This document shows positions 100 through 30,932 of a stretch of DNA of 38,601 nucleotides, in pieces (position 1 is the stretch's first letter; every line of letters begins with the position of its first letter). The stretch is from a virus (taxonomy: Duplodnaviria > Caudoviricetes). The stretch spans positions 1 to 38,601 of the IMG/VR virus record IMGVR_UViG_3300029825_000023. One strand, given 5' to 3'. Position numbers and translations under genes: made by a program. The notes under the pieces are model-generated. The model was not told the origin of the DNA, made no database searches, and worked only from the letters and a program-made list of their open reading frames with translations.

Positions 100-1033
100 A
101 CCTCTCAATATATTCTTTATTTGCCAAGCCTCTTACTTTTAACTCGTTAATGCATTTCTTTTTCAGGTCTTTATAAGCATTATTTGTGTCAGGAAAAACA
201 GGAACAGAATCACTAAAATCAAGCTGTATGCCAACTTTGTCGTATATTTCCTCGAGATTATCAAGCATTTCCCTAGCTTGCTTTTTAGTAAATTCTCTTA
301 GTAACTTAGCTTTGATTTCCTTTTCTGAATGCATGTGACGAGCACCATAAGTTGCTTCAACATCTGATTTCTTGCCGCTTAACGCATGCATCACCTTATA
401 CGTTTCAAAGTCCTCATGCCTTGTATAATGGGAGTCAGTTGTTGGGATGCATTTCACGTTGTATGTTTTACCCAGTGAATATAGTTCCTTATTAGCTAGC
501 TCTTGCAACCCAACCTCGTCAATCGGGATAGGCATAATTTCAAAATAGAAGTTATCATGAAATATCCTTTTAAACCTCTTTGTTGCCTTTATGGCAAGCT
601 TATCATTATTGTTCACTATTGCCTGCGATACAATCCCGCCTATGCATGCTGATGTGCATATTACGCCTTCGTTATATTTTTCAAGTAGGTCGAAAGTAAC
701 TACGCCACGCCGATAGAAATTATGCTCGTTTGCATAAGTAATTATTTGCATGATGTTTGAGTAACCTGTTTGATTTTGAGCAAACAAACATAAGTGATAA
801 TATGGTTTGTCTTTATTAAAGTGGGGCTGAAAGTAAGCTTCAACCCCAATGATAGGCTTTATTCCTGCTTTGTTACACTCAAAATATAGTTTAGCTACCC
901 CTGCTGTGCTACCATGGTCTGATAAACCAAGGGCAGGCATCCCTAACTCTTTGGCATATTCTACAATGTCCTGAATACGACCAAAACCGTCAAATAAGCT
1001 ATATTGAGAATGCTTATGAAGCTCAAACCACAT
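1..1033 (-). CDS. dnaE: DNA polymerase III alpha (DnaE, family C), N-terminal part with PHP domain; continues across the junction into 38502-36896 (879 aa in total)
   Basis: Manual translation from ATG at 1033: MWFELHKHSQYSLFDG...LSDHG...IIGVEAY...YHLCLFAQNQTGY...TSACIGG...TTDSHY; 1033+1607 nt = 880 codons in frame. Confidence 0.93.
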   Translation of the reverse strand, partial: MWFELHKHSQYSLFDGFGRIQDIVEYAKELGMPALGLSDHGSTAGVAKLYFECNKAGIKPIIGVEAYFQPHFNKDKPYYHLCLFAQNQTGYSNIMQIITYANEHNFYRRGVVTFDLLEKYNEGVICTSACIGGIVSQAIVNNNDKLAIKATKRFKRIFHDNFYFEIMPIPIDEVGLQELANKELYSLGKTYNVKCIPTTDSHYTRHEDFETYKVMHALSGKKSDVEATYGARHMHSEKEIKAKLLREFTKKQAREMLDNLEEIYDKVGIQLDFSDSVPVFPDTNNAYKDLKKKCINELKVRGLANKEYIERLKLEANVIKNHNLADYFLIVADYVEEAKRRNIY

Positions 1034-1625
1034 ATTTACCAGCTACTTTCGTAAATTCTTGCAGGTCTTCTTTGTAAACATGAAGGCTGCCAATTAAGAA
1101 ATTCATGTCAAACTTCTGCTTATAATACAGCACTTTCCGGCCGGCTACGTAAGCTAAGTACATATCAGTAATGAAGTTATTATAAAAGTCACAACTTCTC
1201 ATGCCTACATTAATGTATGATTTATCATTGCGCTGCATAAAGTTTATAAATTGAAAGCAATGCATTTGGTCGAAAGTTATGCTTAGCTGCCTTGTTGTAA
1301 TAATCTCGTCAGCATCTGGATATGCTCTTACTATATTGCGAAGTTTATCCACGTTAAACCGCAGCTGAGCATAATCAGAAAGTATGTAATTGCCTATTTG
1401 CCCATTTGTAGCTCTTAATTCTAAAACAGCGTTTGCTATTTCCCAAGCTTGATTGATATTAAAGCCAATCAAATCGAAAAGCTCATTAAATGACTCCTCG
1501 GTAATATCTTTAAAACGAAGAGTGACTGCTGGAAGCTCAACTGTGTTGCTAACAAATTTTTTCTTCCTAGCTAGCTCAATTATTTGTTTAGCTTTGGGAC
1601 TTAATTTTTCAAGTATTTCCGACAC
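1023..1625 (-). CDS. Thymidylate synthase-fold protein, dCMP hydroxymethylase/methylase-like
   Basis: HCFQFINF (catalytic Cys), MRSCD-x7-D and IGSLHVY motifs. Confidence 0.8.
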   Translation of the reverse strand: MSEILEKLSPKAKQIIELARKKKFVSNTVELPAVTLRFKDITEESFNELFDLIGFNINQAWEIANAVLELRATNGQIGNYILSDYAQLRFNVDKLRNIVRAYPDADEIITTRQLSITFDQMHCFQFINFMQRNDKSYINVGMRSCDFYNNFITDMYLAYVAGRKVLYYKQKFDMNFLIGSLHVYKEDLQEFTKVAGKYVV

Positions 1626-1648
1626 ATATAAACCTCCCTAAATAATAA

Positions 1649-1727
1649 TGGAGAGCAGGGCAGGATTCGAACTCTGCTTTTCCAATAGTTTGCTGCTACT
1701 GGTATGTTGCCCTTACATCACCTGCTC
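1649..1727 (-). tRNA. Non-canonical tRNA-Cys(GCA)-like RNA with encoded CCA
   Basis: GAGCAGG/CCTGCTC acceptor stem, ATGT/ACAT D-stem, CCAGTAG/CTATTGG anticodon stem, loop CAGCAAA, GTTCGAATC T-loop, T-CCA end. Confidence 0.75.
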
Positions 1728-1737
1728 TCAAAAAAGA

Positions 1738-2691
1738 TTATTCAACACATAAGTATTTTTTAGCCTCTATGTTGATACGATAAAGTAATCTGTTGAAATA
1801 CTCAAATATTTCCTTGAAAAGATTCCAGCTCCCACCGGCAGTGCCATTCATCTCATTCCGGTATTTCTGATAAATAAAGTCATCAGGATGCCATTCAAAA
1901 ATGTCGCTGTCTTCATCCGGGAAATAAAGATTGGTAGCCTTTCCTGTCCTTGCCATATTGACATAAAACATAGATGGCTTATGGAAGTCAAATATGTCGT
2001 AGCAATATGGTATTTTAGCCACTATGCCACATGCCATCTGGTAGGCAATTATGTTATCAGTCTCAGGCTGGATTTGCTTGTCAATCCTTTGATTAATAAA
2101 TGCTATAGCATCTTTTAAATTCATGCGCATAAAGTAAAATGTTTCCAAGCAACGAGGGAGAATATACCTTGCATCCATAATTGAAACTTCTTTGCTGTCA
2201 ATCATGTCGCAATAAAGCTGCTTAGCATCTTTCGCTATTTGCTTATATCGTTCAAGAAATTCAGGTGAGTTTTCAATGCTCCATGGCACTAAAGCTGCTC
2301 TGTCCGTCCACCACTTATCACCTGAGCAGTCAGCACTGAAGCTACCGGTCCTATATCTAATAAGATGTGTTGCCTCTTGTATGCTAATACCAGATATTTT
2401 GAATACCAAGTTAATTGTTTCAAGAGCCGTTGGCAATGATTTGCCGAGTATACAATTTCGAATCAATTCGTCCTTTTCTCTTACTGAAAGTTTACGTGCA
2501 TCATTTGGGTCTTCAGCCCATGTTGCTTCAAGAAATTGCGGCAAATAATCCCTTAATTCATCAGGGGTAGGTGCTGCAATTAACTCAACATCAATAGCGC
2601 TAAGGTTATTTTTAAGAAGTGTTGTAGGTTTTTTGCCCCACTTTTGTTCCATGGGTAGTTCAACGGGTTGTAAGCTTTCATTCTTTGGCAT
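1738..2691 (-). CDS. Divergent flavin-dependent thymidylate synthase (ThyX-like)
   Basis: LIRYRTGSFS (RHRxxS-like), DARYILP, MNLKDAIAFINQR. Confidence 0.8.
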   Translation of the reverse strand: MPKNESLQPVELPMEQKWGKKPTTLLKNNLSAIDVELIAAPTPDELRDYLPQFLEATWAEDPNDARKLSVREKDELIRNCILGKSLPTALETINLVFKISGISIQEATHLIRYRTGSFSADCSGDKWWTDRAALVPWSIENSPEFLERYKQIAKDAKQLYCDMIDSKEVSIMDARYILPRCLETFYFMRMNLKDAIAFINQRIDKQIQPETDNIIAYQMACGIVAKIPYCYDIFDFHKPSMFYVNMARTGKATNLYFPDEDSDIFEWHPDDFIYQKYRNEMNGTAGGSWNLFKEIFEYFNRLLYRINIEAKKYLCVE

Positions 2692-2731
2692 TATAATCCT
2701 CCTTTGACAGAAATAAGGAGGGTTTCCCCTC

Positions 2732-2941
2732 CTATTCAGCTACCTCGTATCCTTGAATTATCCCTTTGGCGTACTCAATCATGTTTGCCTGAATCCATTT
2801 TGCAGTAGTGCTGTAGCCAAGCGTTTTAGCTATATCAATTACAACTGCAACATCAAACATGCTGGTTAGCCCTGTGTCCCTCGCTGCAAGAATACCATCG
2901 ATAATATCTTGGCTTGGAACCTGCGTCTTACCTCTTTCCAT
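2732..2941 (-). CDS. DUF5049-like small phage protein
   Basis: ILAARDTGLTSMFDV motif; RBS upstream. Confidence 0.6.
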   Translation of the reverse strand: MERGKTQVPSQDIIDGILAARDTGLTSMFDVAVVIDIAKTLGYSTTAKWIQANMIEYAKGIIQGYEVAE

Positions 2942-2994
2942 TTAAACCATCCTCTCGATTGCTGTAGTACCAAGCTTTAGCTTAGCCTAATCAT

Positions 2995-3041
2995 ATTATA
3001 TACTATTGGCAGCTTATATACTATTGGCAGCAGATGTAAAC
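2995..3041 (-). promoter_or_regulatory. Early-type promoter (GTTTACA...TATAAT) disrupted by an 18-bp tandem duplication
   Basis: ttatatactattggcagc occurs at 2996-3013 and 3014-3031; -35 TTTACA at 3035-3040. Confidence 0.65.
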
Positions 3042-3532
3042 CTTTTTATTAGTTCTTTTTCAAGCTCGTCTATCCGCTTATTTACACCATCTGCAAATTC
3101 AAACGTTTTGTTTCCAAGCGCAGCTTCAACCATGCAATATTGCCTTACGCTATAAAGGTCTGCAAGCTTAACAACACTAAATATCTCTTCGTCCTTGCTA
3201 TGCAAAGCGTAATCGGGATAGTTGTCTTCCATAAAACTGTCTTCGAATATTTGTAGCAGCATGCGTAGCGTTTCGCTTAAGTCTTTTACGTCAGAAGGTA
3301 CATCACTCAATATTGTTTCAGGTACGTCATGCAACAAAGCATATTCAATGCACTTAGCTTTTAGCTCTCCTTCGATGCTTAGCTTGTCGCATATTTCAAG
3401 CACAAATAGAGCTGTGAAAAATGAATGCTCAGCTACACTTTCATTGATTAGTCGTAGCCTGTGATTGTATCTAACAAGCGTTTTTAATTTATAAACTTCC
3501 ATAAGATAATCATTAGTTAATAAAGGCATCAT
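3014..3532 (-). CDS. HD-domain deoxynucleotide phosphohydrolase (YfbR/DatZ-like)
   Basis: VRY...ESVAEHS...ALLHDVPE...SDVPS...VKLAD. Confidence 0.88.
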   Translation of the reverse strand: MMPLLTNDYLMEVYKLKTLVRYNHRLRLINESVAEHSFFTALFVLEICDKLSIEGELKAKCIEYALLHDVPETILSDVPSDVKDLSETLRMLLQIFEDSFMEDNYPDYALHSKDEEIFSVVKLADLYSVRQYCMVEAALGNKTFEFADGVNKRIDELEKELIKRFTSAANSI

Positions 3533-4476
3533 TCGACTGCCCCCTTGTATAGGTTGCGTGTTCCTCTGAGAACATTCATTATTTTGTCCTTAATAGAAAT
3601 ACCTTCTGAGGAAGTAAATTCATCTCGACCTAAGATAGTAAGGTTTCCCGATTGAGCTAACATTACGTTAAATTTACCGCTGGTGCCAATCGTTTCATTA
3701 TAATATACAACAGGTTTATTTTTGCCGTAGGCGTAGCCAGCTTCCCATATTGTGCCTATATCCTTGCCATCAGTAACAGCAAATACTAGGTCGCAATTGT
3801 TTATTTCCTTAATGTTGTCCTGAAAAGCTTTCTCGCGCTCCTCCTGTGTAGCGCTAGGGGTTAACAGAATATTTTCACGCGGGCTAAATACTCTGAATCC
3901 TATGTGCCTAAGTTCTTTTATCAGCCGCTCTTCTCGTTCAATTTGAGACGGGTTGAAAAATGGAGCAGCAAAATATATTTTGGGAACGTAAATATCAAAT
4001 TGCTCAGTTAAACTTTTAACAACGTCGTTAATACTATTAAAATCACATGTATATTTCTTTCTAATTGTGCTTGCTTTAAAGAATGCTTCAAAAATTGCCT
4101 GATATATTTCCAAATCTTTTCCATGAGCTTCAGACGCTCTTTTTAAATCGCTCTTGTCAGTAGGAACAACAAGAATTAAAATAGCATCAAGCTCTGAAAG
4201 CTTTTTGTCTATTATTTCAATTTCAAATGATGTATAATTTCTTTCAAGTGCCCCATAAACAAACTCGGTCATGTGAAAACGGTCAATAACAATGTTTTCG
4301 TTTTTGAATATTTCTAAAAACCGAAGCGATGTGTTAAGCTTTTCTAGAGCAACGTCTTTTGTTATTTTCATACCTTCAAAATATGAATCTTTAAAGAGCT
4401 TGAAGCCATGTTCAACAAACTTATTGCAAAGAGTGGTTTTACCCACCCTATCAATACCTTCTACAATAACTATCAA
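3529..4476 (-). CDS. Fusion of a dNMP (thymidylate-type) kinase and a nucleoside 2-deoxyribosyltransferase/N-glycosidase domain
   Basis: N-term EGIDRVGKTT P-loop and DRF...E.VY; C-term IYFAAPFF, DIGTIWEAGYA, NVML. Confidence 0.85.
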   Translation of the reverse strand: MIVIVEGIDRVGKTTLCNKFVEHGFKLFKDSYFEGMKITKDVALEKLNTSLRFLEIFKNENIVIDRFHMTEFVYGALERNYTSFEIEIIDKKLSELDAILILVVPTDKSDLKRASEAHGKDLEIYQAIFEAFFKASTIRKKYTCDFNSINDVVKSLTEQFDIYVPKIYFAAPFFNPSQIEREERLIKELRHIGFRVFSPRENILLTPSATQEEREKAFQDNIKEINNCDLVFAVTDGKDIGTIWEAGYAYGKNKPVVYYNETIGTSGKFNVMLAQSGNLTILGRDEFTSSEGISIKDKIMNVLRGTRNLYKGAVE

Positions 4477-4483
4477 TTTACAT

Positions 4484-4807
4484 TTACTCCTCTCGATGAA
4501 TACTTAAATTAGGGTCAAATCCTTCAGGGTACCGACGTTTTAGTTTGTCAATGTTACGCTGCGCCATCTCTTCTAGAGTGATTCCACAAGCACGAGCTAA
4601 CTTGGCTACGTACCAAAGGGTGTCCCCGCCTTCTTCGATAAGTTTATCTACATCAAGCTCGTGCCCTTGGTCTAGTACTTTTTTCATGTGCTCCAATGTC
4701 TCGGCGGCCTCCCCAACCACGCCCATGGTTGCATTGCGTAAAGCGTTCAGCTTATCCATCGGAGCGTCTGTTCTTGCAGCTAGCAATTGATATTCGTCAA
4801 GTGTCAT
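4484..4807 (-). CDS. MazG-like nucleotide pyrophosphohydrolase
   Basis: MTLDEYQ...GVVGEAAE...EEGGDTLWYV...NIDKLKRRYP; start reassigned to ATG at 4807. Confidence 0.88.
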   Translation of the reverse strand: MTLDEYQLLAARTDAPMDKLNALRNATMGVVGEAAETLEHMKKVLDQGHELDVDKLIEEGGDTLWYVAKLARACGITLEEMAQRNIDKLKRRYPEGFDPNLSIHREE

Positions 4808-4808
4808 T

Positions 4809-5567
4809 TTACCAATCGTCGTCATTGTCCTCGTCCTCATCTGTATCATCAGAACCCCGCTCTTCGTCGTCCTCATCATCATTCCAAATCTGCTCTTCTT
4901 CGTCCAACTCCTCCAAAAGCTCTATATAGTATTCTGCTGATTTCTTGGGGTTTGGGTCAAGGTCACGTTCCTTACAGAGTTGATAGAGTTCTTTTGCAGA
5001 CATATCTTCATAGTTTATTACTTCGTCATCGTCGTCGTCATCCACTGGAACTTCAATATCAGGTGAAAACGCTTTACCTATCATTTTTATCATGGCGTCA
5101 CGGGTTGGAGCCTTAACTTTACTTTTGAACTTAGCCTTGTCCATTGGAATAACAGAGTAAGATGTACTTTGCTGTTTGCCTTTACGTTCTAGTACATAAT
5201 CCCGGTCGGTAATGGTTCCGTAAGTTTCATACATGCTTATGAGTGCAGGGATAGGGGTACAATTGTTAACCGCATAAAGCAGTATTTTAACCTCGTTGGC
5301 ATCGTAGTCATAAACGGGCCATGCATAGTTGTTGCGGGTTCTTAGCTCATCGTTATTGCAGAACTTACATTTCTTTTTGCCTAGCTCCTTTGCACAAATG
5401 CAATTAATACCCTTAGCAAAGCTATCGTGGAAAACAAGCTCTAGGCCTTTTTCAAAGTCAACAAGAAAGCGAATCCTACGCTTTGTGTCGGCTTTAATAA
5501 ATAGAATTTTACCTTTGCTGCCACCAGATTTAGCAATGTCCTCTTTCATACTTTTAAGAATTGACAA
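4809..5567 (-). CDS. Putative single-stranded DNA-binding protein (gp32-like) with acidic tail
   Basis: RIRFL..H..C..CKFC Zn-like motif, acidic C-terminus, adjacent to primase. Confidence 0.65.
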   Translation of the reverse strand: MSILKSMKEDIAKSGGSKGKILFIKADTKRRIRFLVDFEKGLELVFHDSFAKGINCICAKELGKKKCKFCNNDELRTRNNYAWPVYDYDANEVKILLYAVNNCTPIPALISMYETYGTITDRDYVLERKGKQQSTSYSVIPMDKAKFKSKVKAPTRDAMIKMIGKAFSPDIEVPVDDDDDDEVINYEDMSAKELYQLCKERDLDPNPKKSAEYYIELLEELDEEEQIWNDDEDDEERGSDDTDEDEDNDDDW

Positions 5568-29834: not shown

Positions 29835-30325
29835 TTCTTCGACCTCCTATTTTCATATTCCTGCTGCTTTTCTTCCCAAAATTTTTCTTTGTTACCCGAA
29901 GTGATTTTACGCCTATTTAGCTGCTGGCTTGCCGTTTCATCTTGGTCCTTTTGAAGCAATTCATTTATAATAGTAGGTTGTGGCTTGTTCGCCATTGAAA
30001 GATTATTACCAAACAAATGGTTATATACCTCTTGTATGTTATTAACCTCTACAACCAAGTATAGTTTATCTGGCTTTATAAAGTCAATAATGAATACCGG
30101 GGCTTTGTGTTCTACCATTGCATGATATTCCAACTTCTTGATATCATCAAGCGTTATTCTGTAGCTGCTTGCGTCTGTTGACTTAAGTTGGGCTAACACA
30201 TGGTCATTATAGCCGTCTTCCTTTTCCTTCCAACCTGCACCAGATGCTTTAGTCGGCGTAAGGCCCAACCTCTCCATTATTTCCTTTTCACGCTTGAAAT
30301 ACCACTTAATTGGTCTTTTTGCCAT
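29831..30325 (-). CDS. PD-(D/E)xK Holliday-junction-resolvase-like nuclease
   Basis: E...PTKASGAG..KEDG...QLKST. Confidence 0.6.
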   Translation of the reverse strand: MAKRPIKWYFKREKEIMERLGLTPTKASGAGWKEKEDGYNDHVLAQLKSTDASSYRITLDDIKKLEYHAMVEHKAPVFIIDFIKPDKLYLVVEVNNIQEVYNHLFGNNLSMANKPQPTIINELLQKDQDETASQQLNRRKITSGNKEKFWEEKQQEYENRRSKN

Positions 30326-30609
30326 TTTGAATCTCGAATCTCCATAGCCCCCATAATAGCATAATTAGCTAAATCCAGCAGGGTGTCGATTGCCGTCTCG
30401 TCGTTCTCCTCTGCACCCTTAAGCAGGAGCTGTTTTGCTCGGCTAAGCTTGTCGTCTAGCCTGATACATAGCATTGTTGGCCCATACTCTTCGTAGGTCT
30501 TTGAGAATGAATTACCATAAGCTGCATTCTTTTGCTCATACAAATCATTCAAAAGCATGCATAATCTTTTATGGTTCCTGACGTTAGCAGGTTTCTCCCC
30601 ATTTACCAT
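30277..30609 (-). CDS. DUF1599 / nucleotide-modification-associated all-alpha NTP-PPase-like protein
   Basis: KNAAYGNSF...IRLDDKLSR...DTLLDLANYAIM. Confidence 0.85.
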   Translation of the reverse strand: MVNGEKPANVRNHKRLCMLLNDLYEQKNAAYGNSFSKTYEEYGPTMLCIRLDDKLSRAKQLLLKGAEENDETAIDTLLDLANYAIMGAMEIRDSKWQKDQLSGISSVKRK

Positions 30610-30932
30610 TTTTTTATCCTTCCTTTGCATAATCTTTCGGCGTCATGTGAAAGCTTAATTTCGTCCTCCGAGCTAAGTTTCCCGGGCAAATCAAACCCCG
30701 TACTACCATCGAAGTCCTTAAAGTAACAGGCATAACGTGACAACCTCGACTGCCGTGGATGTTGCCCCATTAAGCTTACCAACTGATAGCAGTTACGGTC
30801 AAACTGTGAATCTGTCACAATGCTTTGTCCTAGATTGTAGTAAACAATACTATGAACAATAATCCACCTCTGTAGTAGTTCAATCTTTTCTAACACAGTA
30901 AAGTGCGGGTTGCGCTTGAAGTCCATTTGCAT
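30603..30932 (-). CDS. Stand-alone NAD-dependent ligase domain-Ia-like protein
   Basis: HSIVYY...IVTDSQFD...L. Confidence 0.7.
   Translation of the reverse strand: MQMDFKRNPHFTVLEKIELLQRWIIVHSIVYYNLGQSIVTDSQFDRNCYQLVSLMGQHPRQSRLSRYACYFKDFDGSTGFDLPGKLSSEDEIKLSHDAERLCKGRIKKW

Follow-up and report, generated by a model that had tools for sequence, protein, structure and literature searches.

The window, by which we mean the whole stretch of 38,601 nucleotides that was analysed, is a circular siphophage genome of 38.5 kb with a 99-nt terminal repeat. Its gene content includes head and tail proteins, a terminase, a primase, RecA, and DNA polymerase III alpha, and all 56 of the open reading frames (ORFs) scanned lie on the minus strand. 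The locus under study is framed by 2 of these genes. Upstream is a gene for a ThyX-fold protein (1738..2691, minus strand; Pfam Thy1, E 5e-19) with an altered loop motif, SADCSG, that is kept in 13 of 13 aligned sequences. Downstream is a gene for a 200-aa protein with a thymidylate synthase/dCMP hydroxymethylase fold (1023..1625, minus strand), recognized by weak matches (PHROG E 6.5e-4; PDB E 0.0045); the DNA polymerase III alpha gene comes next. Between them, on the same strand, lies a tRNA-like cloverleaf of 79 nt with an encoded CCA (1649..1727). A Shine-Dalgarno-like site for the downstream gene (1633..1639, minus strand) follows 9 nt past the CCA, and is present whether or not the locus carries the cloverleaf.

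The 2 flanking proteins may modify pyrimidines, and a domain scan found no tRNA-binding or transferase domain in either. Their genes belong to a nucleotide cluster (1023-5567) that encodes MazG, a kinase-deoxyribosyltransferase fusion, an HD nucleotidase, the ThyX-fold protein with its SADCSG motif, and the short thymidylate-synthase-fold protein; an Nmad1 (DUF1599) gene lies apart at 30277-30630. Given the cluster and Nmad1, a modified DNA base in this phage is plausible. In a close relative (L001 343-4603; also L145 and L146), the entire module that precedes the 200-aa gene is swapped for another: the 592-aa and 469-aa proteins found there are, by eye, carbamoyltransferase-like and thymidylate-synthase/kinase-fusion-like, and a polymerase-like N-terminus has been added to the 200-aa gene. 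The swap points to DNA-modification modules that are exchangeable.

Metagenome runs with a matching stretch come from fermenter, digester, landfill, and sludge, and we infer a Firmicutes host. Among cultured phages, a related ThyX-like protein was found in one, Geobacillus phage GR1 (47.5% identity). Across 28 ORFs of the window there are 83 Cys and 223 Ser AGY codons among 8748. A promoter scan found no minus-strand promoter-like site from 2396 to 1446. The insert that holds the cloverleaf thus lacks such a site, and the element would be transcribed as part of the operon. A terminator-like hairpin sits immediately upstream of the ThyX-like gene (2733-2716, minus strand), with no predicted promoter past the hairpin.

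The cloverleaf has the form 7/4/7/5+bulge, and all 23 of its pairs are intact. The acceptor stem, with its 5' strand at 1721..1727 and its 3' strand within 1649..1659, has 7/7 Watson–Crick pairs, among them G1-C72, A2-U71, and G3-C70, and is followed by U73 (1652) and CCA (1651-1649). The D arm (1704..1718), of a type common among phage tRNAs, consists of a 4-bp stem (4/4) and a 7-nt loop, with A14, A15, G16, G18, G19, and A21. The anticodon arm (1682..1702) combines a 7-bp stem (7/7: 6 Watson–Crick pairs and 1 G-U) with a 7-nt loop, C32-A33-G-C-A-A-A, in which A33 lies at 1694 and the anticodon GCA at 1691..1693. The variable loop, AAAA (1678..1681), yields A15-A48. The T arm (1660..1677) has 5/5 Watson–Crick pairs, a canonical T loop, and a bulged A at 1673, before G53. 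In the predicted fold, the leader GA (1729-1728) pairs with U73-C74. The earlier note had described the full cloverleaf with its encoded CCA, GCA anticodon, and U73, as well as the 7-bp anticodon stem, A33, the bulged A, and the GA/TC flanks, and all of these are as described, on the minus strand. We add 2 further departures from canon: G16, and A48, which gives A15-A48 and not R15-Y48.

Measured against a canonical elongator tRNA, the element keeps U8, A14, G18, G19, A21, the T-loop consensus, and CCA. It lacks the 5-bp anticodon stem with 7-nt loop, U33, R15-Y48, and the uninterrupted 12-bp acceptor/T helix; its helix has 12 pairs and 1 bulged A. The 4 extra bases of the anticodon arm form 2 Watson–Crick pairs across both strands, and the connectors are not shortened. 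In the Rfam frame, the same arm is read as a 5-bp stem with an 11-nt loop, and the T stem as having 1 inserted base.

The element is a real, tRNA-derived feature. Rfam RF00005, searched on 181 bases, scores it at 33.1 bits (E 1.2e-5; cut-off 29 bits). A relaxed cloverleaf descriptor matches it alone in the window, and gives a match in 0/1000 dinucleotide shuffles when CCA is required and in 1/1000 when it is not. The folding energy is unremarkable (z -1.73; z -2.89 for the whole 91-nt insert). The check by ARAGORN and covariance model that the earlier note proposed gave a divided answer: ARAGORN finds the element once its threshold is lowered to 80% (-ps80; score 88.6), with no hit under the default, -ps, or -ps90 settings, and RF00005 finds it on the 181 bases and not in a search of the whole window. 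The RF00005 searches also missed a second allele, with anticodon GCU. Neither ARAGORN nor the descriptor found another tRNA-like fold in the window, in agreement with the claim that this is its only tRNA.

The element resembles canonical phage class I tRNAs with a short ATGT/ACAT D arm (mostly Gly, Gln, Thr, and Trp; RF00005), with which it has in common the D-arm type, the 4-nt variable loop, the 7-bp acceptor stem, the T loop, and the elbow bases. A pattern for this D arm matched 120 loci in the 25 of 64 parts scanned, none homologous to the element; 44 distinct matches close a cloverleaf, of which 38 are canonical phage tRNAs. These 38 include 12 Gly, 10 Gln-type, 6 Thr, and 4 Trp, and no Cys. 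Against them the element shows 5 departures: G16 (pyrimidine 16 in 37/38), A33 (U33 in 36/38), A48 (pyrimidine 48 in 36/38), an anticodon arm longer by 4 nt, and a T stem longer by 1 nt. The extra bases of the anticodon arm and T stem bring the distance to 32, versus 27 in canonical tRNAs. More broadly, 215 of 217 distinct cloverleaves (336 loci) fit a frame with a 5-bp anticodon stem and no bulge, and the 2 exceptions are the 2 alleles of the element. No published description of this tRNA architecture was found in the literature searched.

The element is carried by an insert of 91 nt (1640..1730, minus strand) made up of a 3-nt leader, the tRNA-like gene, and a 9-nt AT-rich trailer. Its borders are uncertain by 3 nt, with TTT at each side. 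In locus L144, whose 2 flanking genes match those of the window at 96-98% identity, the site is empty: the spacer is 21 nt versus 112 nt in the window. The filled form was present in 4/4 metagenome runs examined (4 studies; 4 of 24 matching runs), and in 2/4 of them, X3 and X4, filled and empty contigs occur together, with a joint (1639->1731) that skips the 91 nt. The contig depths are 490 filled versus 322 empty in X3 and 7.5 versus 2 in X4, contig depth being distinct from share of cells. Locus L143, at 100% identity to the window, was not treated as an independent case; L002, L003, L019, L152, L195, and L335 are 1 contig, and L149 and L150, identical over the stretch compared, may be 1 phage.

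At greater distance, no tRNA-like fold follows the ThyX-like gene in any of 16 loci (L004-L015, L148-L150, and GR1). In L004-L015 (51-63% best-segment identity) the gap after the ThyX-like gene is at most 66 nt, and in GR1 the next gene abuts it. L144 and L148-L150 have the gene pair but no element, and 13 further loci have the ThyX-like gene but no element; in the close relative L001/L146, both the ThyX-like gene and the element are missing from the corresponding place. The earlier note had named relatives with nothing here as one half of what would refute it, and L144 and the 16 distant loci are such relatives. The outgroups favour gain of the insert in the window's lineage, which would make later deletion of a hairpin in the empty allele the less favoured history.

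A single base of the 112-nt spacer differs between the window and L003: anticodon position 36 (1691), which changes GCA to GCU. The window and runs X1 and X3 have GCA, and L003 and runs X4 and X6 have GCU; the anticodon is not fixed, and position 36 is the only variable base seen in the element. A contig of X3 with 32 differences over 330 nt has none inside the element among the differences listed. The flanking coding DNA shows 49 differences in 1362 bases. Because this predicts 3.3 differences in 91 nt and 1 was observed (P 0.16), there is no significant sign of purifying selection on the insert. A comparison for compensatory changes has 2 known alleles to draw on, which differ by 1 unpaired change.

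Searches for diverged homologues found none. Protein-anchored scans found only the 2 near-identical alleles. A DNA pattern for the bulged T arm matched 4 stretches, 1 of them the element; one for T loop plus CCA, run on 14 of 64 parts, matched 123 loci, none of them homologous and the majority canonical tRNAs in which A52-C62 is mismatched; and one for anticodon loop plus T loop matched 51 loci, 1 of them the element. A 19-base T-arm/acceptor word found 6 stretches in species genomes, none like the element, and blastn against GenBank phages and plasmids found 3'-end matches only (best E 0.07). A covariance model of the element found 1 of 14 related records, the source record of the model. The cluster of the 200-aa ORF has 43 members, and P0007 is a relative at 52% identity.

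Lone tRNA genes turn up here and there in this phage group: among 13 related records, 2 have a single tRNA or tRNA-like gene above the Rfam cut-off, at other sites, and in 1 of these the anticodon arm is replaced and CCA is missing. A 13-bit Rfam match inside a coding sequence (G002) was treated as noise, and ARAGORN -ps80 matches in GR1, which fall within coding genes, were disregarded.

Several other unusual tRNA bodies were seen along the way. In a complete related phage (L333 1500-1588, plus strand; G010), a tRNA body has a long stem-loop for an anticodon arm and no CCA; a 355-aa gene precedes it, and a gene like the window's ligase-fragment gene follows at a short distance. Three viral contigs (L016/L018 at ~1410-1530 and 720-840, L017 at ~460-580) carry a different tRNA-like RNA that contains the element's bulged T-arm word, in which a large shared insert replaces the anticodon arm; it has no ARAGORN or Rfam tRNA match, and its D arm in L016/L018 is Leu-type. 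A phage tRNA body with the element's D-arm type and encoded CCA has a 17-nt U-rich anticodon loop (L330 ~239-326, minus strand). Finally, a Pirellulales MAG has a long-armed tRNA-like gene with a 6-nt anticodon loop and the element's T-loop/acceptor 3' word (L159 655-740, minus strand).

The amino acid identity of such a body would depend on a few positions. U73 and GCA are the main determinants for cysteinyl-tRNA synthetase (CysRS), bacterial tRNA-Cys also having G2-C71 and C3-G70, and U73 on its own confers Cys identity on minihelices (PMC9976931). The Gly determinants given in the same source are U73, G1-C72, and C35, along with C2-G71 and C36, and Ser identity requires a long variable arm (PMC9976931). 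Of the Cys set, the element has U73, with A2-U71 and G3-C70 in the acceptor stem and an anticodon that is not always GCA; of the Gly set, it has U73, G1-C72, and C35, with A2-U71 and either A36 or U36. The earlier note had taken U73 and GCA as established CysRS identity: the main determinants are indeed present, but U73 also occurs in Gly/Thr bodies, which account for the 9/38 same-D-arm tRNAs that have it, and GCA is replaced by GCU. From its bases, the body appears equally Gly-like and Cys-like, and its identity is ambiguous.

A purely Gly-like reading is opposed by 2 phage tRNA-Cys genes (L184 389-463 and L208 389-461, both minus strand) with the identical A33/GCA loop. These genes are otherwise canonical (46 and 50 bits; the search pattern required that loop). 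Bacterial tRNA-Cys, these A33-type genes included, has U73, GCA, and the same 7-nt loop in common with the window's allele; L184 and L208 differ in their 5-bp stem and in having no bulge and no encoded CCA, and the element lacks G2-C71/C3-G70 and reads GCU in some strains. Against GenBank phages, the best 25 of 195 matches to L208 are annotated only as tRNA-Gly or tRNA-Ser. A degenerate tRNA-Cys of the A33 type was also seen in L174.

Some exceptional tRNAs invite comparison. The selC* tRNA-Cys and allo-tRNAs described by Mukai et al. (PMC5389517) resemble the element in U73 with GCA, an anticodon stem longer than canonical, and a T stem with a bulged A (A51a). Their acceptor branch, as presented there, is 8/4 or 9/3, their variable arm is long, and they come with Sec machinery (PMC5389517), whereas the element has 7/5 plus a bulge, a 4-nt variable loop, and no sel genes. 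A selC*/allo-tRNA identity was rejected, the element having neither an 8/4 branch nor a long variable arm, and a Pyl/Sec-type identity was rejected too.

We tentatively favour, with something short of even confidence, the reading that the element is a non-decoding relic of a tRNA from a phage tRNA cluster, cut out of the operon transcript as a by-product and carried as a near-neutral passenger. Its D-arm type and short AT-rich trailer suggest capture from such a cluster, and the T residues at its borders suggest entry or loss by recombination at a 3-nt microhomology. It would be co-transcribed with the replication operon from promoters upstream, and host RNase P could then excise it, given that the acceptor/T helix, elbow bases, and CCA are kept. 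RNase P recognizes the T/acceptor helix and RCCA, and cleaves tRNA-like folds in phage RNAs and mRNAs (PMC11143913). Decoding would fail at the anticodon arm, 4 nt longer and so 2 bp too long, at A33, and at the bulge in the T stem; EF-Tu contacts the T stem, and U33 aids decoding (PMC11415595). The element thus seems to keep the features that RNase P reads and to have drifted in those that the ribosome reads, such as U33 and arm length. Under this account it would be near-neutral, and would perform no service for the 2 neighbouring enzymes. The poor decoding proposed in the earlier note is likewise favoured by the anatomy, namely the longer anticodon arm, A33, A48, and the T-stem bulge.

Several considerations temper the passenger reading. 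Random decay would be expected to leave a less tidy fold than one with 23 intact pairs, 2 extra matched pairs, and a kept elbow, T loop, and CCA, which argues against neutrality. The X3 contig in which no listed difference falls inside the element points the same way, and the position of the sole substitution, in the anticodon, also fits selection on the loop. A33 and A15-A48 are no proof of lost function, because A33 occurs in the L184 and L208 tRNA-Cys genes and both occur in the working tRNA-ProX discussed below. Cleavage by RNase P may be weak or shifted, because the enzyme measures the helix that contains the bulge and because U73-C74 can be drawn into pairs with the GA leader.

An accessory anti-defence RNA, akin to the anticodon-nuclease decoy raised in the earlier note, is an unlikely account: once released, the RNA would act in trans as a decoy or competitor for a host tRNA-targeting nuclease or tRNA sensor, and the GCA/GCU and filled/empty alleles would track host defences. 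It would fit a presence/absence polymorphism at intermediate frequency in 2/4 runs, an only substitution that falls in the anticodon, and an outer shape and CCA that remain intact. Defences that cut tRNAs are widespread, and phages carry tRNAs with anticodon-loop changes against them (PMC10264068, PMC12409363). The phage tRNAs described there, however, act as substitutes for the cut tRNA in translation, a task that requires decoding, and neither paper uses the word 'decoy' (PMC10264068, PMC12409363). In addition, 1 substitution is too few to show selection, and no host or defence system has been identified.

We consider rather unlikely a role in cis, in which the fold is a selected processing or stabilizing signal: the 5' cut by RNase P would separate the ThyX-like cistron from those downstream, and the fold left as a 5' cap, 9 nt ahead of the ribosome site, would raise expression of the thymidylate-synthase-like and DNA polymerase genes. 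The retention of RNase P-read features, with the relaxed features in the anticodon arm, is what such a role would leave. Moreover, the predicted folds show less pairing of the ribosome site in the filled allele than in the empty one, where it is paired in part, although the fold of the empty site is weak (-4.8 kcal/mol, z +0.9). On the other hand, RNase P could be impeded by the T-stem bulge and by the -1/73 pairing, and the junction has no tRNA-like fold in 16/16 distant loci or in L144, which implies that the operon can do without it.

Distinctly unlikely, in our judgement, is a mobile single-gene phage cassette: an anticodon-switching tRNA, with position 36 flipping between strains on a single U73 body, that mistranslates host Ser codons or is a tunable bait for tRNA-cutting defences, kept polymorphic by host-dependent selection. 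If this holds, the phage would carry a mistranslating or decoy tRNA whose architecture we found nowhere described in the literature searched.

The translational side of that idea, a weakly decoding tRNA of dual identity, is improbable. Here the U73 body would be charged with Cys or Gly by a host synthetase; the GCU allele would misplace this residue at AGC/AGU Ser codons, and the GCA allele would act as an ordinary tRNA or insert Gly for Cys. The precedent is tRNA-ProX of Streptomyces and Kitasatospora, a family of natural mistranslating tRNAs with A33, A15-A48, and varied anticodons on 1 body (PMC11415595), all of which the element has too. As reported there, however, tRNA-ProX has G21, A34, Pro identity, and a co-encoded ProRSx, whereas the element has A21 and G34, no Pro identity, and no such partner, with no aminoacyl-tRNA synthetase family match in the 56 ORFs scanned; it is also phage-borne, with a longer anticodon stem and a T bulge (PMC11415595). 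The charging that this reading calls for would draw on U73, which gives Cys identity, and on U73, G1-C72, and C35, which are Gly determinants, with no long arm for Ser (PMC9976931); the Gly share (12/38) of the canonical same-D-arm tRNAs, with 0 Cys, is in keeping with it. Against it, C2-G71 and C36 are missing for Gly and G2-C71 and C3-G70 for Cys, and the anticodon arm is 2 bp too long on connectors of normal length.

The earlier note had suggested a non-ribosomal cysteine/sulfur donor for the modification pathway, taken here as a dedicated Cys-tRNA for the flanking ThyX-like and thymidylate-synthase-like enzymes. Its appeal lies in the location between the 2 genes, in U73 and GCA in the window's allele, and in the non-ribosomal tRNA-Gly donors of staphylococci. 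The latter offer a model of a charged tRNA that evades EF-Tu; as described in PMC4574755, they lack G18/G19 and serve Fem transferases, while the element keeps G18/G19 and has no linked transferase. The proposal is not supported. The operon occurs without the element in L144, in strains that co-exist with filled ones, and in 16/16 distant loci, while L003 and 2/4 runs have GCU as the anticodon. Because the enzymes are found where the RNA is missing and the anticodon varies, we regard this reading as very improbable; the neighbours also lack a tRNA-binding or transferase domain, and the 56 ORFs a sulfur-relay gene.

The 3' ends of tRNA genes are frequent integration sites, and tRNA 3' halves were observed at contig ends among the T loop plus CCA loci, but it is extremely improbable that the element is an attachment site (attP) derived from such a gene of the host: the 56 ORFs of this circular 38.5-kb genome include no integrase match, the species-genome stretches with the 19-base word do not resemble the element, and a whole tRNA-like gene is present, not a 3' half.

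If the passenger reading is true, the element shows that aberrant phage tRNAs escape standard finders, and that a tRNA gene beside a set of enzymes may be of no service to them. Near-identical phages carry filled, empty, GCA, and GCU alleles, sometimes in 1 sample. In this manner, the locus provides a natural experiment on the expression, cutting, and selection of a non-decoding tRNA look-alike.
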